Positions 4,762 through 41,907 of a stretch of DNA of 64,000 bases are shown here, piece after piece. Numbering within the stretch: position 1 is the stretch's first letter; every line of letters starts with the position of its first letter. The stretch comes from Minisyncoccota bacterium (GTDB lineage: Bacteria; Patescibacteriota; Minisyncoccia; Phycocordibacterales; JBAYGS01): positions 41,086-105,085 of the forward strand of contig JBAYGS010000003.1 of the NCBI GenBank assembly GCA_041666545.1, given 5' to 3'. The translations under genes and the position numbers were made by a program. The notes under the pieces are model-generated. The model was not told where the DNA came from. It worked only from the letters and a program-made list of their open reading frames with translations, and ran no database searches.

Positions 4762-4850
4762 CCAATAACCAAGAGACAATAACCAAAATTAAGTTGGTTG
4801 GAATTTGTTTGATTATTGTTTCTTGGATTTTGTTATTTGATTACTATGTC
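4762..4850. repeat. family-B palindromic unit overlapping the comM start region
   Basis: caataaccaagagacaataaccaaaa ... ttgattattgtttcttggattttgttatttg. Confidence 0.65.
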
Positions 4851-6541: not shown

Positions 6542-7594
6542 CTATCTGAAAGGGTTTTGCGCGCCTCGGACTTCGAAGTGTAAGTGCGGTCCGGTTGAAC
6601 GACCGGTAGAACCGACATAGCCGATAATCTGGCCTTGCACGACATAAGAACCTTCGTAGGCAACATTGGTATCAAGGTGCCCATAAAGAGTTTGAGTACC
6701 GTTCGCGTGGGCAATAACGATATATTCGCCGTAGCCACCGTTCCAACCCGAGGAACGACTGATGATGACTTGGCCACTCGCCGCAGCCATGATTGGTGTA
6801 CCTCTTGAGGCACCGATATCAATCCCGTTATAGCCATGCAAGCCCTGGGTTTTTCTGCCACCAAGAACCGGCCAAATGTAATAGGTGCCGTAGTCTGGAC
6901 CACCTGCGCCACGGATTTTTGAGGTGCTACTGATTGTCGAAACACTGTAGCCGGCCATTTCACCATCGGGAATAATTATCGTATCACCAACTATCAAACT
7001 GGCACCTTGATCCAAACCGTTAAATTGTCTGATTTCACCCGCGTCGCCTTTGTACTTTTTGGCAATGCTCTGTAGAGTTTCACCTTTAACCACGGTGTGT
7101 TTGATACCGGAGATAGGTAGGATAATCAATTTTTGACCGACCTGAATCGGACCGGTAATGTCGTTGGCCCAAATAATCGTGTTGGCTGAAACACCAAACA
7201 TTTTAGCAATACCGGAAAGTGAATCGCCAGAATGAACAACGTAGACACTAATCTGACTTGATTTTGGATCTTCGATGTCCGCCAAGGTGCCGGCCGGGCC
7301 AGCTTCCGAAAGTAGGGCGGAGCTTGCCACGATTGTGATGTCACCACCCTTGGACAAGCTCGGGTTAGGGTTCCGGGTCGCCTGAAGCAGGGGCATATTT
7401 TGAGAATTAACTACCGACCCGTTAGTTCCGGCCTCAGCCTCATTATTGACCAAACTAGAAATAAAACTTAAAAGCCCCGCGTTTGCAGTTCGCGGAGCTA
7501 AAATCAAACTTAAAAATAGAACGGTAGCGGTAATAGTTGAGAAAACCAAAATCGGCTTCATTTTGGAAAAGCCTTGGTTGAGCCATATTTTCAT
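6542..7594 (-). CDS. LysM-domain M23 family metallopeptidase
   Basis: 350 aa. Signal/TM N-terminus, two LysM-like repeats (VHSGDSLSGIAKMFGVS; VVKGETLQSIAKKY), and a C-terminal M23 motif HGYNGIDIGA...GPHLHFEVR. Confidence 0.8.
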   Translation of the reverse strand: MKIWLNQGFSKMKPILVFSTITATVLFLSLILAPRTANAGLLSFISSLVNNEAEAGTNGSVVNSQNMPLLQATRNPNPSLSKGGDITIVASSALLSEAGPAGTLADIEDPKSSQISVYVVHSGDSLSGIAKMFGVSANTIIWANDITGPIQVGQKLIILPISGIKHTVVKGETLQSIAKKYKGDAGEIRQFNGLDQGASLIVGDTIIIPDGEMAGYSVSTISSTSKIRGAGGPDYGTYYIWPVLGGRKTQGLHGYNGIDIGASRGTPIMAAASGQVIISRSSGWNGGYGEYIVIAHANGTQTLYGHLDTNVAYEGSYVVQGQIIGYVGSTGRSTGPHLHFEVRGAQNPFR

Positions 7595-11833: not shown

Positions 11834-12811
11834 ATGAAAAACAATCGGCTCACTTTATGGGCAAGCATTGTTCTGGCACTTTTGATTGTCGGCGGAACTT
11901 GGTATTTCTCCGTTAGCAAAGACAGTCAACAAAATATCGTCTCTGATAGCAGTGGCTTGAAACAAGTGGCTAGTCTGGTGACAGAAAAAGATTCTGATCG
12001 TGATGGTTTGAAAGACTGGGAAGAGTCACTTTGGGGGACTGACCCAATGAATCCTGATACTGACGGCGATGGCACAAATGATAGTGACGAAGTCAAGGCC
12101 GGAAGAAATCCCTTGATTCAGGGACCAAACGATATCTTGCAAAAATCGGACGACATCACACAAGTCACTAACATCTCCGCAAACGAGGAACTTAGCCAGA
12201 CTGACAAATTCTCGCGCGAACTTTTTGCCCGTTATTTAGCTTTCAAGCAGGGCAGTGAGACTTTGGACCCAAAGAGTCAAGAAATCATTATCAATAGTAT
12301 GTTGGCGGAGAACCAGACGACTATTTCTGCTAAAGTTCATTCTTCAGCCGAGCTAAAGGTGAGCCAAGACAATTCGGCAGCTGCCTTAAAAAATTATGGC
12401 AACCTGCTTGGCGGGGCCATTATTTCGTCTAGTCCGAAAAACACCCGAAACGAGATTACGATTTTAAACGAAGCGGCCCAGTCCGGAGATGAGAACAAAA
12501 TCGGAGAGCTGGACCCAATAATCACCGGCTACCAAGATTTGATCAAAGCTGTTTTGACTATAGAAGTTCCAACAGGGGCCATCTCAATCCACATCGCTTT
12601 CATCAATAGTTTGGAAAAAGTCTTGGTTAATATCAAAACTTTGCGACAATTCTTTACTGACCCGATCGCCGCTTTGTCAGGAATCAATAATTACGAGGGC
12701 GCTGTCACCTCTTTGCAATCAAGCTTGACCGCTTTCAGGAGCTTTTTCCAGGTTAAGGGCATCGTTTTCGAACCGACCGCCCCAGGGAACGCGCTTGTGG
12801 GCAACTTTTAG
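11834..12811 (+). CDS. membrane-anchored protein with thrombospondin type-3-like Ca-binding repeats
   Basis: N-terminal TM helix. DSDRDGLKDWEE...DPMNPDTDGDGTNDSDE aspartate-rich repeats. First gene of the co-directional secretion-like locus. Confidence 0.4.
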   Translation: MKNNRLTLWASIVLALLIVGGTWYFSVSKDSQQNIVSDSSGLKQVASLVTEKDSDRDGLKDWEESLWGTDPMNPDTDGDGTNDSDEVKAGRNPLIQGPNDILQKSDDITQVTNISANEELSQTDKFSRELFARYLAFKQGSETLDPKSQEIIINSMLAENQTTISAKVHSSAELKVSQDNSAAALKNYGNLLGGAIISSSPKNTRNEITILNEAAQSGDENKIGELDPIITGYQDLIKAVLTIEVPTGAISIHIAFINSLEKVLVNIKTLRQFFTDPIAALSGINNYEGAVTSLQSSLTAFRSFFQVKGIVFEPTAPGNALVGNF

Positions 12812-12829
12812 CTATTTAAAAACCTTTTC

Positions 12830-14764
12830 GTGTTAAAATTTAGCCATACAGGAACAAGAATGACCCAAACATTTTGGAAAATTGGTAAAAAATTCCTTAC
12901 CGGGTTGCTTGTTTTGGCTTTTGTAATGCCAATGGTTTTCGCGACTTCGGCGAATTCTGCTAATGCCCAAGATGCAGGTGGGCTTGGTAGTGTCGTCCCT
13001 GTAGGTGACGCCAAAAACTTAGTCAAAAACACCGCCACCGCTTTCTCTACCAATGCCGAGAAAGTGAGAACTTATGTTTTAAACAACATCGCTTACACCG
13101 TAGCCAAAGGCATCGCCCGCCAACTGACAACGAGCATCGTCAACTGGATTAACTCTGGTTTTAACGGCAGTCCGGCCTTCGTCACCAATCCCACACAATT
13201 CTTAATCAATACCGCCGACCGAATTGCCGGCGACTTGATCGAAGGTTCGGAGCTTGGCTTCCTTTGCGACCCTTTCCGCCTCGACATCCGTTTGGCTTTA
13301 GGTTTAAAGTATCGACCTTTCTATGACAAAGTGACCTGTTCTTTTACCGGCGTTGTCAACAATGTGAGAAACAGCGTCTCCGGTTTTACCGATGGCAACT
13401 TTAGAAATGGTGGTTGGGGTAGTTGGCTGACTCTCACCAATCAACCGCAGAATAATGTTTTTGGCGCCTATTTGGAATCACAAAACGAATTGGAAATTCG
13501 CATCGCCGGCCAGAGAATTTTGGAGTCAAAGAAACTTGACTGGGGTGGCGGTTTTCTATCTTGGGAAACTAATTGTCGCGATGTCCCTCTGCCGGGCGAC
13601 TCCGGTTTCGTCGGCCCAACTTTGCCGGGAACAACCGCGAACGCCGTCGGCTCGGGATTTGTCGGACCGGTAAACAGCGGTGCCGGCCAGGTTAGACGCC
13701 AACAGACTTGTGACATCGCCACTCCTGGTAGCGTGATTAATGACCAACTCAAAAAAGCCTTGGGTTCCGGTATCGACCAGCTCAACTTGGCCGACGACTT
13801 CAATGAAATCGTAAATGCCTTGGTAGTCCAGATGGTTACTCAAGTGGCAGGCGGCGGGTCAAATAGACCTAACACGGTAGGTAACACAGGGGGTCTAAAA
13901 GGAGCAAGCCAAGCGTCAACAGGTGGAGGAGCACCCTTAACTTCAGACCTTGCCCGAGTCCAGGACAACGCCTCATTGAAAAATATCATGACTGGTGTGA
14001 AAGCTGAGCTTGACAATATGATTAGCAACGAAATTAGGTACATCGCCACCAAGATATCATCCTTAAACATTCTAAACACCACGGAAGATTCGGTTATTTA
14101 CTTAAGAAGATGTTATGACGAAAAAGTAAACGGCACACAAATCATTACCCAAAACCAAACCCAAACTCGCATCTACTGTTTGATTGGCAACGTACAATAT
14201 GAAGGACAATACTGCAACAACCAACAGGTCTACCAAGTCCAGAGCAACACCCTAATCAATGGCTTGACCCAAACAGAGGCTGCGACTGCCCGATCTAGGA
14301 TGACCGCCGCCGAGACGACAATCCAACAAGCAATTACCCCACTAAAAGCCCCGATTGAACTAGACATAGCCACCGCCCAAACAATTAAAACCGGTTTAAT
14401 TGCTCTTCAGACCGAAATCAACACAACCCTGGCTCAAAATGAGTTGTTTATCAATGCTGACGGCTCACTTAGAGCAGACTTGAGCCTGGCAGACGCGAAC
14501 GCCAATGTCCAGTTGTTAGGCAAAGCTCAACAACTGTCAAACCAATATCAAGCCCTGACTAGTCGAAATGATTTACACCGAGAAGACAGCTTACTTGACG
14601 CCGAATACGAACGCGACTCCGTAGTTCGTCCTCAGATGGCAACATTAATGGACGGAACACCAGGTCCACAAGGTACGCCAGGTATTTCAACAAAGATTGA
14701 AGCTTGTGCCAACTTCCCTTTTGCTGACAGACAAGCCCAAGGCGGTTGGGGAGCAACTCAATAA
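12830..14764 (+). CDS. large secreted hypothetical protein (probable start at 12860, MTQTFWKIG)
   Basis: Signal peptide LLVLAFVMPMVFATSANSANA, then a 600 aa Gly/Asn/Thr-rich extracytoplasmic protein. Sits immediately upstream of the VirB6-like gene. Confidence 0.4.
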   Translation: MLKFSHTGTRMTQTFWKIGKKFLTGLLVLAFVMPMVFATSANSANAQDAGGLGSVVPVGDAKNLVKNTATAFSTNAEKVRTYVLNNIAYTVAKGIARQLTTSIVNWINSGFNGSPAFVTNPTQFLINTADRIAGDLIEGSELGFLCDPFRLDIRLALGLKYRPFYDKVTCSFTGVVNNVRNSVSGFTDGNFRNGGWGSWLTLTNQPQNNVFGAYLESQNELEIRIAGQRILESKKLDWGGGFLSWETNCRDVPLPGDSGFVGPTLPGTTANAVGSGFVGPVNSGAGQVRRQQTCDIATPGSVINDQLKKALGSGIDQLNLADDFNEIVNALVVQMVTQVAGGGSNRPNTVGNTGGLKGASQASTGGGAPLTSDLARVQDNASLKNIMTGVKAELDNMISNEIRYIATKISSLNILNTTEDSVIYLRRCYDEKVNGTQIITQNQTQTRIYCLIGNVQYEGQYCNNQQVYQVQSNTLINGLTQTEAATARSRMTAAETTIQQAITPLKAPIELDIATAQTIKTGLIALQTEINTTLAQNELFINADGSLRADLSLADANANVQLLGKAQQLSNQYQALTSRNDLHREDSLLDAEYERDSVVRPQMATLMDGTPGPQGTPGISTKIEACANFPFADRQAQGGWGATQ

Positions 14765-14770
14765 TAAAAA

Positions 14771-16507
14771 ATGACCAGACTCAAAAAATATCTGCCATAT
14801 ATCCTGATTGCCGTAATCCTTTGCGGTTTGGCCTTTTCACCTTTACTGATAAACACCGACCATGCTTTGGCGGCTACAGCCGGAGGTTCGTCTGACACCC
14901 CGGGTGGAGAGGGTGGACTAATCAGCACAGTGGCAAGCGGAGTCTTCGATAAATTTATGTCGTCGGTCACTTACATCATCCTCTGGCTAGTCGCGAGGAT
15001 TACTTGGGTCTCCGGCGCCCTGCTCGACCTTTCTGTCTACTACAGTTTGAACTTGGCCACCCTCTTGTCGAGAACTAATATTGTCACTATCGGCTGGACA
15101 ATTTTCCGCGACCTGGCCAATGTTTTCTTCATTTTCATCCTCCTTTATTACGGTATTAGAATGATTATCAGCTTGCCGGTTGATAAAAATTTAATCACGC
15201 GATTGATTGTGGTCGCCCTGCTTATCAACTTCAGCCTCTTTATCAGTCGGGTAGTGATTGACGCTTCAAATGTGGTGGCCTTACAATTTTATAAAGCCAT
15301 TCGGCCAAACTATACTACTGATATATCTAACCCAGATTTTTATTTGGACAACATCTCGAGCCAATTTATGTATGGCTTGCAACTTTCGAGCACCTACGAC
15401 CCGGGCTCTGGCGATAAAAGTGTCCTTCGAGATACAGCCGGTATTGCTTCGAAGAAAATTATCGTGATGATAATGGGCATAATCTTGCTCTTGGTGGCGG
15501 CTTTCGTCTTCGCGGCCGCCGCGATTCTCTTTACCGTGCGAACGGTAGTTTTGATACTCCTGATGATTCTTTCACCAATCGCTTTTATCGGCTCTCTCAT
15601 ACCCAAAACCCAAAGTTATTCTGAAGAATGGTGGACCCAACTTTTCAATCAGTCATTTTTTGCTCCGGCCTACTTGGTTATGACCTATGTCGTTTTGAAG
15701 GCTCTCGGAGGTATCCAAACGATGATTCCTGTACCGGCCGGTGCCTCTTTTACCGACGCTTTCGGAGGAATGGCTTTAACCAGTGTCTCGATAATTATGA
15801 ATTATGTAATTCTGATTATCCTGATGCTTTCTTCTTTGATTATTGCCAAGAGAATGGGCGCTCACGGGGCCGATATGGCACAGAAGGCGGCCGGCAAGAT
15901 GTCGTTTGGGATGGCGGGAGCCTTCGGCAGAACAACCTTCGGCAAAGTCGCTCAATCTTTTGGCGGCAGTAAATTTGCGCAGGGTATGGCTGCCAAATCT
16001 GGGGCCGTTGGCGCCGCCAGCAGGTTAGCACTCAAAGCCACGAATGCTGTCGGCCAGTCTAGCTTTGACCTCAGGGCAACAACGATGGCCGGTGGGGGTA
16101 TAAGCAGTCTTGTTGGCGATGTTGGAAAACCAAGAACAGCAAAAGAACTAGCAAAGGAGGCCGAGGAGGATCGTAAAGTTAAAGCTCAGGCACAGGTCAA
16201 AGCTGATAACGCCAGATTGGGCCAGTCAATTTCCAATCTCGCAACAACCAATCCTGCTGCTATCCCTGGAATTGTCAGTAATTTAGACAAGGACCAGTTT
16301 AAGTCTATTGATCCAAAGATTTTTGTTAACAACTCAACCGCTGCTCAGAGCCTGGAACCAGAACAGCTTAAAAATCTACAGAACAACCCCGACATTACTC
16401 AGGCTGACCGTCGCGCAATTAGACAACACATTTTGAACCTTGGTGCTGTAGGCACACCTACCCACACCTTCATGGATAGTGGCCCTGGTAGTGTTTTGTG
16501 GGCATAA
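14771..16507 (+). CDS. VirB6/TrbL-like polytopic membrane protein
   Basis: 578 aa. Signal peptide, 6 or more TM helices, and a hydrophilic Gly/Ala-rich C-terminal tail. This architecture is typical of VirB6/TrbL/ConG-type T4SS channel proteins. Assignment is by architecture and context only. Confidence 0.45.
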   Translation: MTRLKKYLPYILIAVILCGLAFSPLLINTDHALAATAGGSSDTPGGEGGLISTVASGVFDKFMSSVTYIILWLVARITWVSGALLDLSVYYSLNLATLLSRTNIVTIGWTIFRDLANVFFIFILLYYGIRMIISLPVDKNLITRLIVVALLINFSLFISRVVIDASNVVALQFYKAIRPNYTTDISNPDFYLDNISSQFMYGLQLSSTYDPGSGDKSVLRDTAGIASKKIIVMIMGIILLLVAAFVFAAAAILFTVRTVVLILLMILSPIAFIGSLIPKTQSYSEEWWTQLFNQSFFAPAYLVMTYVVLKALGGIQTMIPVPAGASFTDAFGGMALTSVSIIMNYVILIILMLSSLIIAKRMGAHGADMAQKAAGKMSFGMAGAFGRTTFGKVAQSFGGSKFAQGMAAKSGAVGAASRLALKATNAVGQSSFDLRATTMAGGGISSLVGDVGKPRTAKELAKEAEEDRKVKAQAQVKADNARLGQSISNLATTNPAAIPGIVSNLDKDQFKSIDPKIFVNNSTAAQSLEPEQLKNLQNNPDITQADRRAIRQHILNLGAVGTPTHTFMDSGPGSVLWA

Positions 16508-16517
16508 AACCTAAAAC

Positions 16518-17276
16518 ATGAGATACGACTCAACAAAACTAAACGAAATTTATAAAACCCTGCCAAAAGATGTTCAGGAAGCGATGTTTTCGGTTGACTC
16601 CGCCAACGCTGTTCAAAAAATCGGCAAAGATAACGGCTTGATGATTGATAAAATGGGTACCCTTGGTCAAATGGTTGGTCTGGTAATGCTCGGTGTCATT
16701 AAATCCGTGAGTTTCGCCAAAGAAATCGAACACGAACTCGGAGTCAACTCAACAACCGCTCAAAAGATTGTCGCTCAAGTAAACGAGCAAATCTTTTTGC
16801 CAATCCGAGAATCGCTCCGGAAAATTCAAGAAAAAGAAATCAAGCCGGAATGGGACAGTGAATCAACCACCACCTTAAACCACGAAGATGTGTTGAAGGG
16901 GATTGAGGAACCCGGAGCAGTCACCGCCGATAAGCAAACCTTACTTAGCGAAAGCAAACCGGCGACCGCACCGGCGCCAGTCAACTTGCCGACCGGACCG
17001 ATGGGGAATGCACCGGCAGAAATCAACGCTTGGCCAAAATCACCTGAAATAACGAAAGCCCCACTCGAAACATCGGCAAAACTAAAAGTGGAAAGCATGG
17101 GAGTAAATATCCTTGAGGATAAAATGAGTAAAGTTGTCCATATCGCTAAAGAAACTAAAATCATTGAGCCAGAACCTTCAAAATTGCCGCCAGTTGCTCC
17201 GAAACCACCAACTCCACCCTCAATGCTGAAGAAGCAATATGGGACAGTTGATCCGTATAGAGAACCGGTAAGCTAG
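16518..17276 (+). CDS. hypothetical protein with a Pro-rich C-terminus
   Basis: Complete ORF inside the cluster. No recognisable motifs. Confidence 0.35.
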   Translation: MRYDSTKLNEIYKTLPKDVQEAMFSVDSANAVQKIGKDNGLMIDKMGTLGQMVGLVMLGVIKSVSFAKEIEHELGVNSTTAQKIVAQVNEQIFLPIRESLRKIQEKEIKPEWDSESTTTLNHEDVLKGIEEPGAVTADKQTLLSESKPATAPAPVNLPTGPMGNAPAEINAWPKSPEITKAPLETSAKLKVESMGVNILEDKMSKVVHIAKETKIIEPEPSKLPPVAPKPPTPPSMLKKQYGTVDPYREPVS

Positions 17277-17306
17277 TTTGTAGTGAGTAGTGGGTAGTGA
17301 GTAGTT
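17277..17306. repeat. family-A repeat (gtagtgagtagtgggtagtgagtag), left inverted copy flanking the four-helix-bundle gene
   Basis: Its exact reverse complement (aactactcactacccactactcactac) occurs at 17664-17690. Confidence 0.8.
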
Positions 17307-17309
17307 AAA

Positions 17310-17666
17310 ATGCAAGTCAAAACTTACAAAGATCTGATTGTTTGGCAAAAGTCTATGGAGCTGGCCACTTTGATTTATAATTTAACCAAAGAGTTCCCAA
17401 GAGACGAGGTCTATGGCTTGTCTTCACAAATCAAACGGGCCGTAATTGCAATCCCATCGAATATCGCCGAAGGACAACGCAGGAAGGGGACGAAAGAATT
17501 TATTCAATTTCTACACATCTCTTATGGGTCTGGAGCAGAACTGGAAACTCAGCTGGAATTAGCCAAAAGACTATCTTTCGGTAATTTGAATAGCTATACT
17601 GTCATAGAAAACCTTTTAAACGAAATCATGCGAATGTTAAATAAGTTAATTTACTCACTTCACTAA
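17310..17666 (+). CDS. four-helix-bundle protein (23S rRNA intervening-sequence protein family; Avd-like fold)
   Basis: 118 aa. DLIVWQKSMELATLIYNLTKEFPRDEVYGLSSQIKRAVIAIPSNIAEGQRRKGTKEFIQFLHISYGSGAELETQLELAKRL matches the TIGR02436 / PF05635 signature closely. Confidence 0.8.
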   Translation: MQVKTYKDLIVWQKSMELATLIYNLTKEFPRDEVYGLSSQIKRAVIAIPSNIAEGQRRKGTKEFIQFLHISYGSGAELETQLELAKRLSFGNLNSYTVIENLLNEIMRMLNKLIYSLH

Positions 17667-17698
17667 CTACTCACTACCCACTACTCACTACCAACTCC
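17652..17698. repeat. family-A repeat, right inverted copy (overlaps the stop of the four-helix-bundle gene)
   Basis: ctcacttcactaactactcactacccactactcactaccaactcc. Confidence 0.8.
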
Positions 17699-17699
17699 T

Positions 17700-18137
17700 A
17701 TGCGTTTCCAAACACCGCAATTCATAGAAATCGAGGACAAAATTTTTGGGCCTCTCACCCTGAAACAGTTCATCTACCTTTTGGGTGGCGCTGGTTTGGC
17801 TTTCATTTTTTACCGATTCCTTAATATTTTTGTGGCCGTACCCCTAATCATTGCCTCCTTGGGCTTTGGTATCGCTTTGGCTTTTTATAAGATCAACAAC
17901 AGACCATTTGCCTATATTATTGAAGTCGCGGCCAAATATTTCCTACGCAACAAACTTTACATTTGGAAGAAAAAAGATAAACCGGTAGTCCAGAAGACGG
18001 AGAGCAGTGAAGAAGACCTGGTTTCCGGGCTTTATGTCCCCAAACTTTCTGACAGCAAATTAAAAGATCTGGCCTGGAGCCTGGACATCAAAAATGTTGA
18101 GAACCCTGGGACTTCCGAGACCATGCGAGGAAAATAA
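17700..18137 (+). CDS. small membrane protein with two TM helices (possible VirB3-like component)
   Basis: 145 aa. Two hydrophobic helices near the N-terminus, then a charged tail. Positioned upstream of the VirB4-like ATPase as VirB3-like proteins often are. Context only. Confidence 0.3.
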   Translation: MRFQTPQFIEIEDKIFGPLTLKQFIYLLGGAGLAFIFYRFLNIFVAVPLIIASLGFGIALAFYKINNRPFAYIIEVAAKYFLRNKLYIWKKKDKPVVQKTESSEEDLVSGLYVPKLSDSKLKDLAWSLDIKNVENPGTSETMRGK

Positions 18138-18249
18138 TGGACCTAATCGTCATAATATTTTTTTGATTTTCCTCTGTTTTGGGATTTATTTGGAGCTTGG
18201 TGTTTGTTATTTGGTGCTTCTTTATTGGGTTTTATGATAAAATGGCTTT

Positions 18250-18885
18250 ATGGCAAAAGCGAGCAGTTCAGAAACAACTCAAGGATTTGTTCCGATTAAG
18301 GAAGTCAGAGACGGCATCGCCGTTTTGAAAAATGGCGGTTTAAGAGCAATTCTTTTGGCTTCTTCTTTGAATTTTGCGTTGAAATCGGCCGATGAACAGC
18401 AAGCTATCATTTCTCAATTCCAAAACTTTTTGAATTCATTGGACTTCTCGGTACAAATTTTCATCCAATCACGCCGACTAGATATCAGGCCATATATTGC
18501 CCTACTCGAAAGCCGGTACAAAGAACAGCTTTCGGATTTAATGAAAATCCAGACCCGAGAATATATCGAGTTCATCAAGAATTTTACCGAAAACACCAGT
18601 ATTATGAGCAAAAGCTTTTTTGTAGTCATTCCTTACACCCCATCAGTTCTCGGTTCGGGTTCAAAGGGCCTCCTGGGCCGAAAAACCGAAAAGGTGACTC
18701 CGCAGACCTCGATGGAAAACTTCGAGGAAGACAGGAGCCAGCTCGACCAAAGAATTTCTGTCGTGGCCCAAGGGCTGACTCGATCCGGCATCAGAGTGGT
18801 ACAGCTTGGCACTGAGGAAGTTATCGAGCTTTTCTACAAAATTTTTAATCCGGGTGAGAGCGAAAAACCGATCCAAGTAAAATAG
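18250..18885 (+). CDS. hypothetical soluble protein, possibly a VirB4 N-terminal-domain-like fragment
   Basis: 211 aa. VPIKEVRDGIAVLKNGGLRAILLASSLNFALKSADEQQAIISQFQNFLNSLDFSVQIFIQSRR recalls the N-terminal region of Gram-positive VirB4/TrsE-type ATPases. Unverified. Confidence 0.3.
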   Translation: MAKASSSETTQGFVPIKEVRDGIAVLKNGGLRAILLASSLNFALKSADEQQAIISQFQNFLNSLDFSVQIFIQSRRLDIRPYIALLESRYKEQLSDLMKIQTREYIEFIKNFTENTSIMSKSFFVVIPYTPSVLGSGSKGLLGRKTEKVTPQTSMENFEEDRSQLDQRISVVAQGLTRSGIRVVQLGTEEVIELFYKIFNPGESEKPIQVK

Positions 18886-18902
18886 TGGCTATTTTACTTG
18901 GA

Positions 18903-18998
18903 ATCACCAAACACCAAGAAACAAATTCCAAGCAAACTCCAATAACAGAAACCTGAAAACTTTAGTTATTGTTTCTTGGTTATTGATTATCTACATCC
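18903..18998. repeat. family-B palindromic unit (ccaagaaacaa...ttattgtttcttggttattgattat)
   Basis: Reverse-complement arm and forward arm of the gttattgtttcttggttattg motif, upstream of the second four-helix-bundle gene. Confidence 0.7.
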
Positions 18999-19358
18999 AT
19001 GATTCATAAGTTTGATTTAGAAAAGCGAACGACAGATTTTGCAAAAGAAACCATCCTACTTTGCAGGAAATTACCTAAAGACCCGATAAACAACCGCCTA
19101 ATGGGACAAATTGTCGGTTCTTCCGGCTCTATTGGAGCTAATTACCGTGAAGCTAATGACTCACTGGGTAAGAGAGACTTTATCCACCGTTTGAAAATAT
19201 CCCGCAAGGAAATCAAGGAAACACTCCATTGGTTTGATTTGATTGAGACGGCCAATCCTAATTTCAAACCAGTGATACTGCCCCTCGCTAAGGAAGCGAC
19301 TGAACTGCGAAATATCTTTTCGGCGATTATTAAGAAATGCGAGGACAAGCAAGTATAG
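18999..19358 (+). CDS. four-helix-bundle protein (23S rRNA IVS protein family), second copy
   Basis: 119 aa. ...IVGSSGSIGANYREANDSLGKRDFIHRLKISRKEIKETLHWFDL matches the same family as 17310-17666 and is divergent from it. Confidence 0.75.
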   Translation: MIHKFDLEKRTTDFAKETILLCRKLPKDPINNRLMGQIVGSSGSIGANYREANDSLGKRDFIHRLKISRKEIKETLHWFDLIETANPNFKPVILPLAKEATELRNIFSAIIKKCEDKQV

Positions 19359-19373
19359 TATAATTGTATGACT

Positions 19374-19424
19374 GGTTATTGATGTTTGTTTGGTTATTGT
19401 TTCTTGGTTATTGATTATTTACAC
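19374..19424. repeat. family-B repeat, direct copy downstream of the second four-helix-bundle gene
   Basis: ggttattgatgtttgtttggttattgtttcttggttattgattatttacac. Direct repeat of 18964-18990. Confidence 0.7.
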
Positions 19425-19426
19425 CT

Positions 19427-21235
19427 ATGAGTTTCTTAAGTAACTTATTTACCAAAAAGAAAACGGTCTCAGGTATTTCTCCAATTTTGCCACAGGAAAT
19501 TTATCAATCCGGAGTTTTGGAGTTGCAAGATATTATCGCACCTTCCGCCCTCAAAATCAGTCCCAAGGAGCTTAATTTGGGCGAAAAGATTGTCCGGTCA
19601 TTTTTTGTGATTTCTTACCCTCGTTTCCTTTCGGAATCTTGGTTTGCGCCAATCATCAACCTCGACAAAGTTTTTAATGTCTCGATTTTTGTGCACCCAA
19701 TCGACACCGTCAAAGTTCTGCGCCAATTCCAGAAGAAAGTCGCCGAGGTGCAGAGCCAGATCAGCGCCAGGGAATCAAAAGGCTTGGTGAGAGACCCGAT
19801 GCTTGATACTGCTTATCACGATTTGGAACAACTACGCGATAGCCTGCAACAAGCCCAGGAAAAACTTTTTGATGTCGGCCTCTATATCACCATTTACGGC
19901 GATAACGACAATGAGTTGGACAAAATTGAATCAGAAATTAAATCAATTCTCGAGTCTAAACTTGTGTATGTAAAACCCGCCCTTTTCCAACAAGAGCAGG
20001 GCTATATCAGTTCGCTACCGATTGCCGACGACCAACTCCAGGTTCACTCAAAGCTCAATTCCACCCCTCTTTCCAGTCTTTTCCCGTTCGTGTCTTTCGA
20101 CCTAACTTCAGATAAAGGCATCCTTTACGGCGTTAATCGCCACAATTCCAGTCTGGTGCTTTTCGACCGCTTCTCGCTTGAAAACTACAATTCGATTACC
20201 TTCGCCAAATCTGGCGCCGGAAAATCGTACGCGACTAAACTGGAAATTTTGCGAACTCTGATGTTTGACGCCGATGTCATCGTAATTGACCCGGAAAAAG
20301 AGTACGAATACATGGCCGAGGCGACCGGTGGCAAATACTTCAATATTTCCTTAACTTCCGAACATCACATTAACCCCTTCGATTTACCGACGCCGAGCGA
20401 AGACGAGTCTCCGGCCGATGTTTTGCGTTCCAACATCATCAACCTGGTCGGCTTGTTTAGAATCATGATGGGTGGGCTTACCCCGGAAGAAGACGCGATT
20501 ATTGACCGGGCCATTACCGAAACCTACGCCCTGAAAGACATCTCGCCCGATTCCAACTTTGCCAATATTGAGCCACCGCTACTTTCAGATTTCGAATTGG
20601 TCTTGGCCGGCATGGAGGGCGGGGAATCGTTGGTACAAAGAATCACCAAATACACTAAAGGCACCTGGTCCGGTTTCCTCAATCGGCCGAGTAATGTGGA
20701 AATCGACAAAAAATTTGTTGTTTTCTCTTTGCGAGACATGGAGGAGGAGCTCAAACCAGTCGCGATGTACATCGTCACTCATTATATTTGGAATGCCATC
20801 AGAAAACACCTGAAGAAACGCCTACTGGTCATTGACGAGGCTTGGTGGATGATGAAATCCGATGATACCGCCTCGTTTCTTTTGAGCCTCGCCAAACGCG
20901 GACGAAAATATTATTTAGGCCTGGCCACAATCACCCAAGATGTTGATGACTTTTTGCGTTCGCCTTACGGTTTACCGATTGTCACCAACTCCTCAATTCA
21001 AATTTTACTCAAACAATCACCGGCCGTTATAGACCGACTGAAGGAAGTCTTTAACCTAACAGATGAGGAAAAATATTTACTTCTGGAATCTGATGTCGGG
21101 GAAGGGATTTTCTTCGTCGGCCTTAAACATGTTGCCATCAAAACTATCGCTTCATACACCGAGGACCAGATTATCACTTCGGACCCATCTCAAATTCTAG
21201 CTATCAAAAAGGCTCGCGCCGAGCTTAATTCTTAA
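19427..21235 (+). CDS. VirB4/TrsE-like conjugation-type ATPase (AAA-like, CagE/TrbE/VirB family)
   Basis: 602 aa. N-domain IVRSFFVISYPRFLSESWFAPIIN. Walker A FAKSGAGKSY. Walker B LLVIDEAWWMM (the DEAW motif typical of VirB4). C-terminal ATPase region. Confidence 0.75.
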   Translation: MSFLSNLFTKKKTVSGISPILPQEIYQSGVLELQDIIAPSALKISPKELNLGEKIVRSFFVISYPRFLSESWFAPIINLDKVFNVSIFVHPIDTVKVLRQFQKKVAEVQSQISARESKGLVRDPMLDTAYHDLEQLRDSLQQAQEKLFDVGLYITIYGDNDNELDKIESEIKSILESKLVYVKPALFQQEQGYISSLPIADDQLQVHSKLNSTPLSSLFPFVSFDLTSDKGILYGVNRHNSSLVLFDRFSLENYNSITFAKSGAGKSYATKLEILRTLMFDADVIVIDPEKEYEYMAEATGGKYFNISLTSEHHINPFDLPTPSEDESPADVLRSNIINLVGLFRIMMGGLTPEEDAIIDRAITETYALKDISPDSNFANIEPPLLSDFELVLAGMEGGESLVQRITKYTKGTWSGFLNRPSNVEIDKKFVVFSLRDMEEELKPVAMYIVTHYIWNAIRKHLKKRLLVIDEAWWMMKSDDTASFLLSLAKRGRKYYLGLATITQDVDDFLRSPYGLPIVTNSSIQILLKQSPAVIDRLKEVFNLTDEEKYLLLESDVGEGIFFVGLKHVAIKTIASYTEDQIITSDPSQILAIKKARAELNS

Positions 21236-21237
21236 AC

Positions 21238-22005
21238 ATGGCTGTTAAAGAGCGTATCGACAACACTACTGCCGGCTTGATGATTGCGGCCGCCTTTTTC
21301 CTCTTTGATTTAGTTGGCGGACTAGTAAATCTTATACCTTACGCAGGACAAGTTTTAAGCGATTTGGTCTCATTGACTGGCTTTTTAGTTATGGGCTTTT
21401 GGTTTATTTTAAAGGGAGTTAAGTTTTTGGACGGTGAAAATATCGGCAAAAAGGCCGGTACGCTGGCGTTTTCAATAATAATCGAGGCAGTCCCAATATT
21501 AAATGTTTTGCCGGCCCTGACATTTTTTGTAGTCAGGACAATTATCATGGTAAAATCAGAGGATAAGGTTAATGCCTTAAAGGAATCAACTGGTGCCGTG
21601 GGCAAGTTGGCGGAACGTGGCCACTCAAAGTCCAAAGGTAAATCCGAGAAGCCGGACGAAACACCGGCAGATGAGGACGGCGAAGAATCCGAGGAGTCTG
21701 GACCAGACTCTGGTCAAAGCGATACAGATGGGACATCAGCAACTCAAGAATATAATTCTGCTCCTATCGCCCATAAGGCATTTGGTGGCGTAGATACTGG
21801 ATCAATCAAAGACAGGAGCTTACGAGGGCCAGATTCAATCGATGACACCCCAGAAGAAAAATTGGCGGAACTGCAGTCTGGTCCTGGTGGACCAGATATA
21901 GTAGAAGCCGGCAACGAACGCCGGCGAGAAAAATTCAAAGAAATGATAAAAACAGGCGACGACCTACACCAAAACTCCTCTGGAGTTTTTCCGGACAGAA
22001 GATAA
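21238..22005 (+). CDS. membrane protein with an acidic C-terminal tail
   Basis: 255 aa. 3-4 TM helices, then a D/E/S-rich tail. Confidence 0.35.
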   Translation: MAVKERIDNTTAGLMIAAAFFLFDLVGGLVNLIPYAGQVLSDLVSLTGFLVMGFWFILKGVKFLDGENIGKKAGTLAFSIIIEAVPILNVLPALTFFVVRTIIMVKSEDKVNALKESTGAVGKLAERGHSKSKGKSEKPDETPADEDGEESEESGPDSGQSDTDGTSATQEYNSAPIAHKAFGGVDTGSIKDRSLRGPDSIDDTPEEKLAELQSGPGGPDIVEAGNERRREKFKEMIKTGDDLHQNSSGVFPDRR

Positions 22006-22064
22006 GGTAATTTGACTGAAACATTACGCAGTTTTGAAAACATAATGAGACTTTGATGATATAA

Positions 22065-23087
22065 TTGAAAGTGTTAATTATGAAAAAGCTAATCCTTGTT
22101 GCTCTCACGATGTTTCTGTTGGTGAATGGAGCTCTCTCCTCCGCCCAGACCATCGATTTGACCCAAAATCTCTCGGTCACTCAAAATCCAGAACGACCAA
22201 GAGCTTACGATACTGTTTCGATTTCAGTTGAAAGTTATTTGGTAGACTTAAATTCAGCTTCAATTACTTGGTCAGTAAACGGCAAGCTCTCGGAAAAGGG
22301 GACCGGCAACAAAACTTTCAAAATTAAACTCGGGGCGGTTGGCTCTTTAACCACGGTTGGCCTAAGCATCAAAGCCAGAACCGGCGAATCAATCGACAAA
22401 GTCTTTGCTTTACGCCCATCTGAAGTGGACCTTTTGTGGGAAGCCCAAACCTATACCCCGCCTTTTTATAAAGGCAAGGCCCTTTTCTCCAACCAGGGCC
22501 GTTTGAGGATTATTGCGGTGCCAAATTTTAAAGATTCGAGTGGCAAAACTATTTCAGCCGGCAATTTAATCTATACCTGGAAACAAGACGACCAGGTTTT
22601 GGGCAATCTTTCCGGTTATGGCAAATCCACTTTAATTGTTGACGGCCCGCTCTTGCCAATTCTAACCACCATAAGTGTCCAAGCGATGACCGCCGACAGT
22701 CAACTAGTCGCAGAAAGTCGTCTCTCATTAAGGTCTCTGACTCCTAGTATTTTATTTTATGAGAACAACCCGCTCTACGGCATTATGTATCATCAAGCCA
22801 TGGGCTCTGCCTTTACTTTACGCGGTTCAGAAATTACTTTAGCCGCTGAACCATATTTCTTCTCTGGTCACGAAAAAACGACTCTGGAAACCACCTACGA
22901 CTGGCAACTCAACGGTGTTATTGTAGGAGATAACGAGAACGGCGAGGTCACCTTAAGAAATGATAAGGCCCAAACTGGCCAGTCGATTTTGAGCCTGGAA
23001 ATAACCAACAGCCAAAAAATTTATCAATCGGCCCGACAAACCTTGACCTTGAATTTCTCTAGCGAAGGTGCTAACCCAACCTTCTAA
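22065..23087 (+). CDS. secreted hypothetical protein
   Basis: Signal peptide LILVALTMFLLVNGALSSAQT, then a beta-rich 300 aa domain. Confidence 0.35.
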   Translation: MKVLIMKKLILVALTMFLLVNGALSSAQTIDLTQNLSVTQNPERPRAYDTVSISVESYLVDLNSASITWSVNGKLSEKGTGNKTFKIKLGAVGSLTTVGLSIKARTGESIDKVFALRPSEVDLLWEAQTYTPPFYKGKALFSNQGRLRIIAVPNFKDSSGKTISAGNLIYTWKQDDQVLGNLSGYGKSTLIVDGPLLPILTTISVQAMTADSQLVAESRLSLRSLTPSILFYENNPLYGIMYHQAMGSAFTLRGSEITLAAEPYFFSGHEKTTLETTYDWQLNGVIVGDNENGEVTLRNDKAQTGQSILSLEITNSQKIYQSARQTLTLNFSSEGANPTF

Positions 23088-23917
23088 TGAAAAAAATGTC
23101 TAAAAATTTACGGCAGACTTTTTTAATAATTTATGTGGTTTTTCTTTTCAGTTCTTCAGTCATTACTGCTCAAGCCGCTGAACCTGTCAATTATATCCCT
23201 TTGGAGCCGTCTTTTTTAGGGCTTCCTACTGGCAGCACCGGTGGTATCACTTTTGGTGAATATCTCACTAGGTTTTTCTCCACTGTAATCGGTCTAGCGA
23301 TTATCTTGGCCGTCTTAATGATTGTTTGGGGCGGCTTTCAATATCTCTCAACCGACGCAATCACCGACAAACAAGAAGGGAAAGAGAAGTGGACTCAAGC
23401 GATTTATGGTCTAGTTTTGGTCCTAGCATCCTACCTCATCCTCCAGACAATCAACAAACAAATTATCACCATCCCTAATACTATTTTAAACCCTGGGAAC
23501 ATAACTTCTCATAGGGTGGAACCGATTGGTAGTGACGCAGCGATGAATGAAGCCGACCGCCTGGCCAACGCTCAAGCCAACCGACAAATCTCGGACATTA
23601 ACGCCAAAATTGAAGTAGCCCAAACTGAGGAAGAGGCAATTGATTTATTAAACCAAGCCGAGCAAGTTAAGCAGACCAGACTAGACGAACAAAAAACCGC
23701 CCATATCGCCGACACTCAAAGTTTTTTCGCGACTGAATTCCCAAAACTTCAGGAGAACTTTTCAAACGGACTTAAAAATCAGGTCGCAACTAACCGTGTG
23801 GCAATTCTGGAGAAACTCAAGGAGTTGACAACTTTTCTGGACAGAAACGGTTATGGAGCCGACGCGGACCGAATTCACCAGGAAACCGTCGCCAGACTTA
23901 ACCAATATCCAAACTAA
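23087..23917 (+). CDS. pilin-like protein with signal peptide and two TM helices (TrbC/VirB2-like architecture) plus a C-terminal coiled coil
   Basis: Signal peptide ending AQA, then two hydrophobic helices (VIGLAIILAVLMIVWGGFQYL; AIYGLVLVLASYLILQTI), as in VirB2/TrbC pilins. Assignment by architecture only. Confidence 0.3.
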   Translation: MKKMSKNLRQTFLIIYVVFLFSSSVITAQAAEPVNYIPLEPSFLGLPTGSTGGITFGEYLTRFFSTVIGLAIILAVLMIVWGGFQYLSTDAITDKQEGKEKWTQAIYGLVLVLASYLILQTINKQIITIPNTILNPGNITSHRVEPIGSDAAMNEADRLANAQANRQISDINAKIEVAQTEEEAIDLLNQAEQVKQTRLDEQKTAHIADTQSFFATEFPKLQENFSNGLKNQVATNRVAILEKLKELTTFLDRNGYGADADRIHQETVARLNQYPN

Positions 23918-23922
23918 TTAAA

Positions 23923-25146
23923 ATGTCAAAAAAAGTTATTTGGGTTCTTATAATAATATTAATCTTAATAATAGCCATCGCTATCTTCGGCTACTTCTTT
24001 TTGCAAACTCCGACTGGCCAGAAATTTGTGCAAGACAACGGGCTTTCCATCTTTATGCCTTTCGGCAATCAGGACCTACCACCGATAACTGGCGGGACTG
24101 GTGGCGGATTAGGGGTCAGTACTACCACCTTGCCTTCGACCGAACTGCCCTCGACCGAACCTTTGCCTAAATTGAGGAAAATCTGGGCCTCACCGACAGC
24201 GGGAGCAATCATTTTCTCTAAAAACAATACTAGTGACATCCGCTTTACCGACCGAAGTACCGGCCACATTTATGAGATGCTCGCCACCGACCGAGAGCCG
24301 GAGCGAATTTCTAACACGACAATTCCTAAGGTTTATGAGGCCGTTTGGAGCCCCGACGGCAACACTGTATATGCCAGATACTTAAAAGGAGAGACTAGCC
24401 CGAGCATTGAAACCTATGAAATAAAACTGGCTTCAACTACCGGTCAGGATTTTATTGGAACTTTCCTGCCAAAAAACATCTCAAGCCTGGCAACGAACCC
24501 CGCCGGCGATAAGGCTTTCTACTTGTCGCGAGAGACCGCCGGTGCCACCGGTTATGTTTGGCAAAAGAGTGGTAAGAGCCGAATCAACATTTTCTCTTCA
24601 CTTTTATCGGAATGGTTGGCCTCTTGGCCAAACGACACTTTTATCCTGCTTACAAATAAACCGAGCGGTACTTCACCGGGTTTTGCCTACCTGCTAAACT
24701 CAAAAACCAGCGAGATTAAAAAAATTGCGGAAGGTTTTAAAGGGCTCACTGCCTTAGCGAACGCAAAAGCCGATCTGGCCCTTATTGGTGGCAACGGACT
24801 AACAATCGGCACATGGAGACAGAAGGACAACAGTCTAAACAGCCTACCAATCAGCACTTTGCCAGAAAAATGTGTTTGGAAGGATGACCAGGCTGTCTAC
24901 TGTGCTGTGCCGGACTCTATCCCCGAAGGGGTCTATCCTGACAGTTGGTACCGGGGTGCTGTCTCTTTCAGGGATTCGCTTTGGGAAGTGAATACCGCCA
25001 CATTAACCACCAATCTCACAATATCCCTTAGTCTCACGGCAGGGGAAGATTTTGATGTCATTTCACCAGTGCTAAGCCCAGACAAAAAGAGTCTAATTTT
25101 CATCAACAAAAAAGACTTGAGTCTCTGGCTTTTGGAACTGCAATGA
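23923..25146 (+). CDS. membrane-anchored beta-propeller-like (TolB/PD40-like) protein
   Basis: N-terminal TM helix, Gly-rich linker, and WSPDGNTVYARY-type repeats. Confidence 0.4.
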   Translation: MSKKVIWVLIIILILIIAIAIFGYFFLQTPTGQKFVQDNGLSIFMPFGNQDLPPITGGTGGGLGVSTTTLPSTELPSTEPLPKLRKIWASPTAGAIIFSKNNTSDIRFTDRSTGHIYEMLATDREPERISNTTIPKVYEAVWSPDGNTVYARYLKGETSPSIETYEIKLASTTGQDFIGTFLPKNISSLATNPAGDKAFYLSRETAGATGYVWQKSGKSRINIFSSLLSEWLASWPNDTFILLTNKPSGTSPGFAYLLNSKTSEIKKIAEGFKGLTALANAKADLALIGGNGLTIGTWRQKDNSLNSLPISTLPEKCVWKDDQAVYCAVPDSIPEGVYPDSWYRGAVSFRDSLWEVNTATLTTNLTISLSLTAGEDFDVISPVLSPDKKSLIFINKKDLSLWLLELQ

Positions 25147-25174: not shown

Positions 25175-25203
25175 CAAAAAAGAGGCGAGTGCCTCTTTTT
25201 TAA
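25175..25203. terminator. bidirectional terminator between convergent genes
   Basis: aaaaaagaggc-gagt-gcctcttttt, with an A-run and a T-run on either side. Confidence 0.6.
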
Positions 25204-39955: not shown

Positions 39956-40102
39956 ACGGCTAATTTTAGCTTTTTTTAGACGGGCTTACAACGCAAGAAA
40001 AAGGGGGAGGGAAAGCCCCGCCGGCCGAGGACGTCCGGCGGGGCTTGACAACTTTTTGTTTTGTGATAGGGTGGCGGGAGAACCTTCAACCAAAGGTGTT
40101 CA

Positions 40103-40597
40103 ATGAAAATCGTTAACTATGTCGCAGTTCTTTGTTTGAGTCTGGTGTTTGTTGGTTGCAAGTCCCCGCTCTCCCAGGGCCAAAAGCCGGTTCCGGTCGT
40201 GAACAACTATTATTACAATACCCCGCCTCCGGCCCCGGTGGTCGCCAAACCGGCCCCAGCTCCAGCGAAAGCGAAACCCGCTCCGGCCCCGGCCAAAACG
40301 GCGGTAACGGCGCAGAAGCCCGCTCCGCCCAAGGTCGCGCCGGTCCCAGTGTTGAAATCCGGGCGCCCGGACTACAGCGTCTTGTTTATCAACCGGACCA
40401 AAGAGGTCGTGGCCATTGCCCTCAATAACGGGCGGCTGAAATTCAGTCTGAAGCCGGGCGAAGAGAAGGAGGTTCCGGCGGAGGCCTCGAACAACCAAAT
40501 TCCTTACGAGGCGAAAATCGGCAACACTGCCTACGCCGACGGGACCATCAAGGTTGACCCCGGCTCGGTCTTTTACCGGATTACGATTCGACAGTGA
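40103..40597 (+). CDS. lipoprotein with a Pro/Ala-rich linker (high-GC gene)
   Basis: Signal peptide with lipobox LVFVGC, (P-A-P-A-K)n low-complexity region, then a 90 aa beta domain. Local GC is well above the window average. Confidence 0.4.
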   Translation: MKIVNYVAVLCLSLVFVGCKSPLSQGQKPVPVVNNYYYNTPPPAPVVAKPAPAPAKAKPAPAPAKTAVTAQKPAPPKVAPVPVLKSGRPDYSVLFINRTKEVVAIALNNGRLKFSLKPGEEKEVPAEASNNQIPYEAKIGNTAYADGTIKVDPGSVFYRITIRQ

Positions 40598-40619
40598 GTC
40601 GGTCCGGCACCAAACCACC

Positions 40620-40658
40620 CCCCCACCCCTTTGCGGGTGAGGGGTTTTTTTATTATAT
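40620..40658 (+). terminator. G/C-rich hairpin plus T7 terminator
   Basis: cccacccctttgcgggtgagggg followed by tttttttatt. Confidence 0.5.
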
Positions 40659-40723
40659 TCGCATGCCTTATTCGTAAAGGTTCTCAACAGTTTTTAATGC
40701 TCAACTAAGCCGTATCTTTGCTA

Positions 40724-40845
40724 TTGACCCCGTTAGAGATAGGTCATCAGAGATGACCGTAGCTATATGCTAGTAGCAGCATTCTATTTTATGGCTTTGA
40801 ATAAGGTTTTTTAGAGCATTCTAAACAGAGGATCTCTAACGGGGT
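40724..40845. repeat. small element with 14-17 bp terminal inverted repeats (accccgttagagat / atctctaacggggt) and an internal palindrome ggtcatcagagatgacc
   Basis: Seen directly in the sequence. The arms are about 90 bp apart in the intergenic region between a lipoprotein gene and a secreted-protein gene. Confidence 0.5.
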
Positions 40846-40944
40846 TGACTTTAGTCTTAAAATTTGATATACTATAGGTAGGAATACAGAAACCTAAACC
40901 ATGTTTGTGCCGACTTTTAGTAGTCGGCACAAGGAAAGGACCAG

Positions 40945-41835: not shown

Positions 41836-41907
41836 GCCACTCAGTTCTTCACAAAGCGCGTCGCAAGATGCGCTTTTCTTTTTGTTCAATTTAGCTACAA
41901 TCACTGG

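Follow-up and report, generated by a model that had tools for sequence, protein, structure and literature searches.

We describe an operon in a 64-kb window (the whole stretch of DNA that we analysed, part of contig JBAYGS010000003.1) from a Paceibacterota bacterium. It comprises 13 plus-strand open reading frames (ORFs) at 11834-25146 with inter-ORF gaps of 0-114 nt, which confirms the co-directional locus that an initial annotation had drawn there from the letters alone. We consider it likely that the locus is a chromosomal, vertically inherited type IV secretion system (T4SS) of the Patescibacteria clade, non-conjugative and derived from the conjugation machinery of monoderm MPF_FATA systems. 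The operon is a typical copy of the published origin-proximal, relaxase-less Patescibacteria T4SS, which almost every ultra-small Patescibacterium possesses: The system is already known, and the locus adds no new kind of system. What our analysis adds is a contrast in conservation between VirB4 and DnaA, a VirB5 candidate (g02), an immunoglobulin (Ig)-like protein (g11), the split between a TrsD-like protein and VirB4, and 2 inserted cassettes with genes of the Pfam family 23S_rRNA_IVP (IVP). For comparison, a genome scan provided 80 related loci from different species, among them metagenome-assembled genomes (MAGs) of Taylor-, Zambryski-, Campbell- and Parcubacteria.

Motor, platform and surface proteins

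The genes assigned to the motor, the membrane platform, the pilin and a possible pilus tip are the following.

12830..14764, plus strand: g02, secreted 644-aa protein, tentatively a VirB5/TraI-like pilus-tip or stalk protein, directly 5' of the VirB6-like g03
14771..16507, plus strand: g03, tentatively VirB6/TrbL-like polytopic membrane protein with a hydrophilic C-terminal tail ("extended VirB6" type); TrbL score near the cut-off
17700..18137, plus strand: g06, PrgI family, VirB3-like protein with 2 transmembrane segments; Pfam PrgI 41.4 bits, cut-off 27
18250..18885, plus strand: g07, TrsD-like protein of 211 aa, the detached VirB4 N-domain (from NCBIfam and alignment to an unsplit VirB4)
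19427..21235, plus strand: g09, VirB4-family ATPase (MPF_FATA / CD1110 type) of 602 aa, without the first ~180 residues
23087..23917, plus strand: g12, VirB2-like T4SS pilin with a signal peptide, a two-helix hairpin at aa 60-121 and a poorly conserved helical C-terminal extension of ~150 aa

The ATPase g09 reaches 364.8 bits against NCBIfam conju_CD1110 ("VirB4-like conjugal transfer ATPase"; cut-off 325), covering model positions 180-734 of 752, and it also matches VirB4_plasma, TraC-F-type and VirB4_CagE of NCBIfam and, in Pfam, P-loop_TraG (88 bits), AAA_10 and TraC_F_IV. The Walker motifs that the initial annotation had read are in place, Walker A (AKSGAGKS) at aa 260-267 (nt 20204-20227) and Walker B (LLVIDEAW) at aa 466-473 (nt 20822-20845). 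In a PDB search, the nearest solved structures are the Thermoanaerobacter VirB4 4ag5 (2.5e-38) and TrwK (1.9e-5). The initial annotation had also considered that the ATPase might group with HerA/FtsK-type enzymes, which was not seen. That the protein is a translocase of this type amid an unrelated envelope operon could be suggested by its NCBI name, "DUF87 domain-containing," and by the 29.7 bits that its P-loop segment scores with Pfam DUF87/HerA; however, the latter match covers aa 259-320 only, whereas the full-length matches are to VirB4 families above a curated cut-off, VirB4 and TrwK are the only PDB matches, and the ATPase is flanked by PrgI, the TrsD-like VirB4 N-domain and a T4SS pilin. 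On the conju_CD1110 score and the PDB matches we rejected the HerA/FtsK reading, to which we attach a practically negligible probability. The exact sequence of g09 also occurs on the ENA contig ERZ27249449 k141_931567 (178.5 kb), and NCBI lists it as a protein of a Candidatus Paceibacterota MAG. Because g09 shares 80-100% identity with hundreds of Paceibacterota/Parcubacteria MAG proteins but no more than 36% with plasmid VirB4 proteins, it very likely belongs to the Patescibacteria VirB4 clade; its closest plasmid relatives are CD1110-type VirB4 proteins of Firmicutes/Actinobacteria, at 31-36% identity.

As judged by sequence comparison, the N-terminal domain of VirB4 is present but split, the TrsD-like g07 being the part absent from g09. 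In NCBIfam, g07 matches positions 98-233 of VirB4_plasma (8.7e-12), positions 9-110 of conju_CD1110 and TrsD/TraD (28 bits); in Clostridium perfringens, whose VirB4 is unsplit (783 aa), residues 35-193 align with g07 (E 2e-8), and the precomputed Pfam assignment of g07 is PF26593 TraC-like. The gene was found in 77 of the 80 loci, and the spacing between trsD and virB4 is 0-30 nt in about 60 of these 77. The identification of the 211-aa g07 as the separated VirB4 N-domain comes from this analysis; the initial annotation had not recognised it. The small protein with 2 transmembrane segments that had been placed in the VirB3 position does prove to be a PrgI family member: g06 has two hydrophobic segments, is present in 75-77 of the 80 loci and, by analogy, may dock VirB4 to the membrane.

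The architecture of g03, with about 8 hydrophobic segments, fits VirB6. Its match to Pfam TrbL (24.8 bits, E 2.2e-5; aa 139-346, profile positions 26-211 of 215) lies under the cut-off of 25.9, and the gene has a conserved position in 57 loci. No match was returned by a search of its family profile against the PDB or by tblastn against 72,556 plasmids. The pilin-like protein with a signal peptide and 2 transmembrane segments, g12, is borne out by Pfam T4SS_pilin (38.6 bits, cut-off 26.6); the TrbC/VirB2 match is faint and the match to the NCBIfam Mbov_0395 pilin-like family weak. Only the N-terminal 45% of g12 is conserved, and its orthologues range from 106 to 628 aa.

For g02, a comparison with VirB5 had been proposed. 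Among its orthologues, 24 of 64 match Pfam DUF4141 at the N-terminus, and 3 of the 7 inspected exceed the cut-off; g02 of the window has no DUF4141 match itself, yet it aligns with the motif after the signal peptide. DUF4141 proteins sit between traG and traJ in Bacteroides conjugative transposons, and TraI of CTnDOT was reported as a VirB5 homologue (PMC4027160). The predicted model of g02 contains a confident C-terminal helix bundle, for which Foldseek against the PDB gave nothing below E 0.08, and a profile search against the PDB gave nothing relevant. Taking these weak signals together, we put the chances that g02 is VirB5-like at even or slightly better. Some g02 orthologues (P0252, P0258, P0284, P0307, P0317, P0321, P0347 and P0355) have extra C-terminal adhesion-type domains (F5/8 type C discoidin, PF16403, PKD), which agrees with an exposed, host-binding role.

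The other envelope and accessory proteins of the operon are these.

11834..12811, plus strand: g01, the gene that opens the operon, product anchored at its N-terminus and containing TSP3 repeats; Pfam TSP3_bac 33.3 bits, cut-off 25
16518..17276, plus strand: g04, conserved protein with an N-terminal helical region, a proline-rich linker and a C-terminal DPYREP motif
21238..22005, plus strand: g10, small polytopic membrane protein with 3 hydrophobic segments and an acidic disordered tail
22065..23087, plus strand: g11, three predicted Ig/FN3-like beta-sandwich domains behind an N-terminal anchor or signal helix
23923..25146, plus strand: g13, last gene, N-terminal transmembrane anchor and a probable TolB-like beta-propeller; all signals weak

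The TSP3 repeats of g01, which the initial annotation had correctly noted, are bacterial repeats of the calcium-binding type; the protein has one N-terminal hydrophobic segment, and an orthologue with about 28% identity occupies the same position in 43-47 related loci. Orthologues of g04 occur in 39-51 loci, with D245, Y247 and E249 invariant. For g04, there is no match in Pfam, NCBIfam, PHROG or the PDB, nor any of its family profile to the PDB, and single-sequence searches of the PDB, PHROG and NCBIfam were empty for g02, g04 and g11 alike. An ORF of 110-300 aa with mostly 2-4 hydrophobic segments lies directly 3' of virB4 in 57 loci; g10 itself has no family match, and the idea that it is a second pilin was rejected (hhalign probability 0.8%; 31 positional orthologues without a consistent Pfam family). 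Between virB4 and g11, no g10 equivalent was seen in L002 and L004-L007, which are among the closest VirB4 relatives; there, the gene with three Ig domains comes directly after virB4. A comparison of g11 with the VirB8 fold, suggested in the initial annotation, gave three Ig-like domains instead; on its predicted model, g11 is a surface or wall-spanning accessory protein and not VirB8. For g13, found in 57-61 loci, the family profile points to TolB (7mx5, E 0.014), Pfam PD40 (0.014) and DPPIV_N (0.054).

These assignments modify the description of the products as almost only secreted, lipid-anchored or polytopic. The lipid-anchored part is not supported, no lipobox cysteine being found in any of the 13 proteins, and 4 or 5 of the 13 products are cytoplasmic, namely the TrsD-like protein, VirB4, two IVP proteins and, probably, g04.

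Genomic setting and conservation

The operon lies between core genes. On its 5' side are genes for PNPase, ComM, an M23/LysM peptidase (minus strand), UvrD/PcrA and KsgA; on its 3' side are Jag, YidC and RnpA (minus strand), followed by DnaA, DnaN and PBP1. A hairpin at 25175-25202 separates the last operon ORF (g13) from the convergent jag, and a promoter and terminator scan of the locus gave nothing informative except this operon-closing hairpin. The cumulative GC skew has its minimum and turning point at ~28 kb in the window; therefore, the operon adjoins oriC. The synteny comparison that the initial annotation had called for, Parcubacteria MAGs included, showed an operon order almost unchanged across the 80 loci: UvrD-KsgA-g01-g02-VirB6-g04-PrgI-TrsD-VirB4-(g10)-g11-pilin-g13-Jag-YidC-RnpA-DnaA-DnaN-PBP1 is near-constant in dozens of species. 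VirB4 is 80-88% identical to the window protein in 80 other species. Since the loci were chosen by VirB4 similarity, we rely on the contrast in identity within the same genomes, which is still valid. The median identities to the window proteins are as follows.

Motor: VirB4 81.7%, TrsD 65%, PrgI 55%
Housekeeping, same genomes: DnaA 62%, UvrD 56%, KsgA 51%, YidC 49%, DnaN 47%
Exposed: pilin 39%, g11 34%, g02 33%, g13 33%, VirB6 30%, g01 29%
g04: 29%

VirB4 thus evolves more slowly than the replication initiator DnaA, and the exposed parts evolve fast. A conserved motor combined with fast-evolving exposed components is what one would expect if the device makes contact with the host and the cell cannot do without it.

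The functions of a conjugative element were looked for as well. In a Pfam scan of the window proteins, which covered ORFs of at least 250 aa, no relaxase, VirD4, VirB11 or integrase was present, in agreement with the initial annotation, and tblastn with Gram-positive VirD4, relaxase, MobC and SLT queries gave no match in the window or in the 80 related loci. Because no relaxase or coupling protein accompanies the operon, we do not regard it as a conjugation machine. The operon could still be the mating-pair-formation module of a conjugative or integrative element whose relaxase, coupling protein and oriT lie elsewhere in the genome: Outside the candidate phyla radiation, the closest relatives of the ATPase are the VirB4 proteins of conjugative Firmicutes/Actinobacteria, homologues of the type IV coupling protein (T4CP) are far from virB4 in many Patescibacteria (PMC12102498), and our inspection covers 64 kb. 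We nevertheless hold this to be very improbable. The operon stands between core genes beside oriC, in an order shared by dozens of species, and no integrase, repeats or tRNA boundary was found at it. Recent horizontal spread should leave uniformly high similarity, and what we see is the opposite, with the ATPase above DnaA in conservation and its operon neighbours at ~30%. Relaxases are known from only 103 of 3,035 Patescibacteria genomes (PMC12102498). A true conjugative relative, the C. perfringens plasmid pSXP-169_2 (L082), has MobC, a relaxase, VirD4, PrgI and an SLT hydrolase together with an unsplit VirB4. The conserved core-gene order, the position at oriC and the missing integrase argue that the operon is vertically inherited and core rather than mobile.

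Relation to known systems and proposed function

Our locus is best compared with the T4SS described by Quinonero-Coronel and colleagues (Quinonero-Coronel et al. 2025, PMC12102498), who found VirB4 in 2,417 of 3,035 Patescibacteria genomes as a clade nested in MPF_FATA. In their survey, TrsD, PrgI/VirB3, VirB6 and PF18895 pilins occur near the Patescibacteria virB4, T4CP genes are rarely near it, and the T4SS of Paceibacteria adjoins dnaA, dnaN, rnpA and ksgA. The operon shares with these systems a VirB4 of MPF_FATA ancestry, the adjacent TrsD, PrgI/VirB3, a VirB2-like pilin (PF18895) and, tentatively, a VirB6-like protein, the lack of a nearby relaxase or T4CP, and the chromosomal position beside dnaA/dnaN/rnpA/ksgA. 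The initial annotation had rightly compared the locus with the minimal T4SS-like arrangement of ultra-small bacteria: The gene content, the absent relaxase and T4CP, and the position at dnaA/rnpA/ksgA all agree with the published account (PMC12102498). The operon differs in that g01, g02, g04, g10, g11 and g13, a Paceibacteria-specific accessory set, are not named in the descriptions that we consulted, and in that two IVP cassettes interrupt this copy. A homologous cluster, SEML1_0006-0019, is essential for the epibiotic growth of Southlakia epibionticum and has pilins, but neither a relaxase nor a coupling protein could be recognised in it (Wang et al. 2023, PMC10633639); it has a 6-gene pilin array, as opposed to the single pilin gene here.

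Among conjugative MPF_FATA systems of monoderms (pCF10 Prg/Pcf, CTn2 CD1110, pGO1 TrsD/TrsE), we find the same PrgI directly 5' of a CD1110-type VirB4, the same lack of an outer-membrane core complex and, in the pGO1 subclass, a split TrsD and VirB4 (PMC4027160). Those systems, however, own MobC, a relaxase, VirD4 and an SLT/CHAP hydrolase and reside on mobile elements, and none of these genes is present here; conversely, they are without VirB2-type pilins, and a pilin is present here. With the diderm VirB/Trw systems (Agrobacterium VirB, R388 Trw), the operon appears to share the roles of VirB2, B3, B4, B5 and B6, of which the VirB5 and VirB6 calls are weak, and the adjacency of a VirB5-like and then a VirB6-like gene is as in virB5-virB6 and in CTnDOT traI-traJ. 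Unlike in the diderm systems, there is no outer-membrane complex of VirB7, B9 and B10, no VirB8, no VirB11 and no VirD4. The T4SS relatives that take up DNA (H. pylori ComB, archaeal Ced) have a VirB4-type ATPase without a relaxase or coupling protein, as here, but the match to CedB is partial (P-loop only, 37.6 bits against a cut-off of 700) and no other Ced or ComB parts were recognised.

From these comparisons we propose that the operon most likely forms a non-conjugative, pilus-like contact or translocation organelle for a host-dependent lifestyle. The split of VirB4 is observed; the TrsD-like N-domain and the 602-aa ATPase would assemble from two polypeptides into a VirB4 hexamer, and this hexamer, by comparison with R388 and Gram-positive systems, would dock on PrgI/VirB3 and the VirB6-like protein in a single membrane. 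ATP hydrolysis may then extract the VirB2-like pilin g12 from the membrane, and the pilin could polymerise on the VirB6 platform under g02, if the tentative VirB5 call is right, as a VirB5-like tip. The anchored surface proteins g01, g11 and g13 may steer this assembly across the wall or hold it there, and may touch the host cell. In ultra-small bacteria, few machines are known to be essential for an epibiotic life, and the Patescibacteria T4SS is among them. A VirB5-like candidate beside a VirB6-like gene would complete a minimal pilus-assembly set in a monoderm and is a concrete target for structural and genetic tests.

Several points weigh against this proposal. The evidence of essentiality comes from one Saccharimonadia species only and not from Paceibacteria. 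The VirB6 assignment of g03 is weak: The architecture on which the initial annotation had based it holds, but the TrbL score is marginal and mostly unreproduced, matches at E<=0.01 occurring in only 4 of 31 orthologues. For g02, the VirB5 call is tentative in view of a 53-residue N-terminal model that misses the window protein and a non-specific helical-bundle match. No VirB8-like gene (NTF2-fold; PrgL, TraM, TcpC) came up among the operon genes; g11, whose place and length fit best, models as Ig-like, and the structure models did not extend to g04, g10 and g13. Likewise, no hydrolase domain of a cell-wall hydrolase (VirB1/PrgK/CwlT type) is present in any of the 13 ORFs. Finally, T4CP homologues are common elsewhere in Patescibacteria genomes (PMC12102498), and a distal coupling protein is possible beyond the 64-kb window.

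A candidate for the wall function lies 4 kb 5' of the operon.

6542..7594, minus strand: M23 peptidase with LysM domains; Pfam Peptidase_M23 105 bits, LysM 83 bits

A peptidase of this type has the same position, upstream of uvrD-ksgA, in 8 loci (L008, L011, L035, L038, L041, L042, L057 and L074), and VirB1 homologues containing M23/LysM are associated with virB4 in Paceibacteria (PMC12102498). We regard the M23/LysM peptidase as a stand-in for a VirB1-type wall hydrolase only speculatively.

On the direction of transport, reviews have speculated about effector delivery or uptake as the role of the Patescibacteria T4SS (PMC11665869, PMC12857230). The same machine, differing only in the direction of the cargo, could mainly be an importer like ComB or Ced, in which case it would be a pilus-tipped conduit for host DNA, nucleotides or other building blocks. 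The window has no relaxase or T4CP and contains ComM and type IV pilus genes, NCBIfam CedB, a DNA-import ATPase, matches the P-loop region of g09, and Patescibacteria are without nucleotide synthesis, for which the same reviews propose uptake through the T4SS. The CedB score, however, is far below its cut-off, and neither CedA, ComB nor a DNA-binding component is recognisable in the operon. The Southlakia T4SS is still essential when comEC-dependent transformation is abolished (PMC12857230), which separates it from competence and is no proof of import. We consider the importer possible but unlikely. With similar reserve, as a doubtful but specific suggestion, one may imagine a core, vertically inherited "feeding" organelle, whose monoderm conjugative-type pilus, with a VirB2-like shaft and a VirB5-like tip built on VirB6, VirB3 and the two-piece VirB4, would penetrate or dock on the host and take up host molecules rather than export DNA. 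If true, this would account for a motor that is conserved beyond DnaA and for exposed parts that diverge quickly.

Inserted IVP cassettes and other features of the window

Of the 13 genes, 2 are not secretion genes but belong to inserted cassettes.

17275..17696, plus strand: IVP cassette 1, ORF 17310-17666 enclosed by 33-nt inverted repeats
18902..19419, plus strand: IVP cassette 2, between trsD and virB4, ORF 18999-19358 with 45-nt imperfect inverted repeats

The ORF of cassette 1 matches Pfam 23S_rRNA_IVP with 132.9 bits and PHROG Avd (5.4e-10); like that of cassette 2, it belongs to an Avd-like four-helix-bundle family. Its repeat arms, 17275-17307 and 17664-17696, are 97% complementary, and RNA folding closes the stem (z -4.0). 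The corresponding spacer is empty in most related loci. In cassette 2, the ORF reaches 51.3 bits with 23S_rRNA_IVP, and its repeats are 78% complementary, with the stem again closed in RNA folding (z -4.65). An insertion of 450-545 nt at the trsD-virB4 junction is found in only 6 of 77 loci. A perfect 14-bp hairpin at 18872-18902 overlaps the trsD stop codon, and a direct repeat of 42 nt (leader and ATG, 90% identical) occurs at 18961-19002, before the IVP ORF, and at 19389-19430, before virB4. From its sequence, cassette 2 seems to equip virB4 with a duplicate of the cassette's translation start region, while it breaks the normally tight coupling of virB4 to trsD.

Searching 81 T4SS loci with a hidden Markov model, we found 19 IVP ORFs, spread over 13 loci. 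Each of them lies in a spacer of the operon and shares its strand, most being in the spacers g04>PrgI, PrgI>TrsD and TrsD>VirB4; the operon flanks, though they make up 38% of the sequence, contained none. Besides the window, IVP ORFs were found in L024, L028, L029, L032, L033, L038, L050, L052, L067, L068, L072, L076 and L080. A metagenome scan, made with a narrow IVP alignment and covering 80 metagenome loci, showed flanking inverted repeats at 68 of 82 IVP ORFs; 35 of 49 IVP ORFs were co-directional between two genes, and many of the operons were unrelated. The IVP genes are general operon-embedded inserted cassettes and not parts of the T4SS. That they encode T4SS subunits was rejected, given their presence in only 13 of 81 loci, in varying spacers, and also in unrelated operons. 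An assignment as Avd of a diversity-generating retroelement was rejected too, with no reverse transcriptase among the window ORFs of at least 250 aa. The cassettes resemble the intervening sequences of 23S rRNA in having a PF05635 ORF enclosed by a long inverted-repeat stem, but they lie in intergenic spacers of an mRNA operon and not in 23S rRNA; there is no rRNA in the window, and none near 12 related IVP cassettes. A literature search on IVP cassettes flanked by inverted repeats was unproductive. Annotators of such loci should know that 2 of the 13 ORFs are inserted IVP cassettes. Of additional note, the TrsD-IVP-VirB4-PrgI segment of L076 runs opposite to the remaining operon and to the core genes on either side, and a frameshift breaks its IVP gene into two ORFs.

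Type IV pilus genes share the window with the T4SS, a PilB-type gene at 38285-39955 (minus strand) and PilM at 60973-62067 (plus strand) with small ORFs downstream. The PilB-type product, a type IV pilus protein of 556 aa with an MshEN domain, is the only T2SSE ATPase among the window ORFs of at least 250 aa. Alongside the T4SS, type IV pili are the second envelope machine that has been reported as essential in Saccharibacteria. The ComM-like protein, of the Mg-chelatase family, is encoded at 4816-6414 (plus strand).

A GC-rich island lies at 40100-41900, with a GC content of 0.60-0.63 against 0.44-0.47 elsewhere. No Pfam match was found for ORF 40945-41835, and an Rfam search of the 40100-41900 region was empty. 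This ORF and ORF 40103-40597 (164 aa, with a VGC lipobox-like site) encode secreted, low-complexity proteins rich in Pro/Ala/Gly, and the island is possibly foreign DNA.

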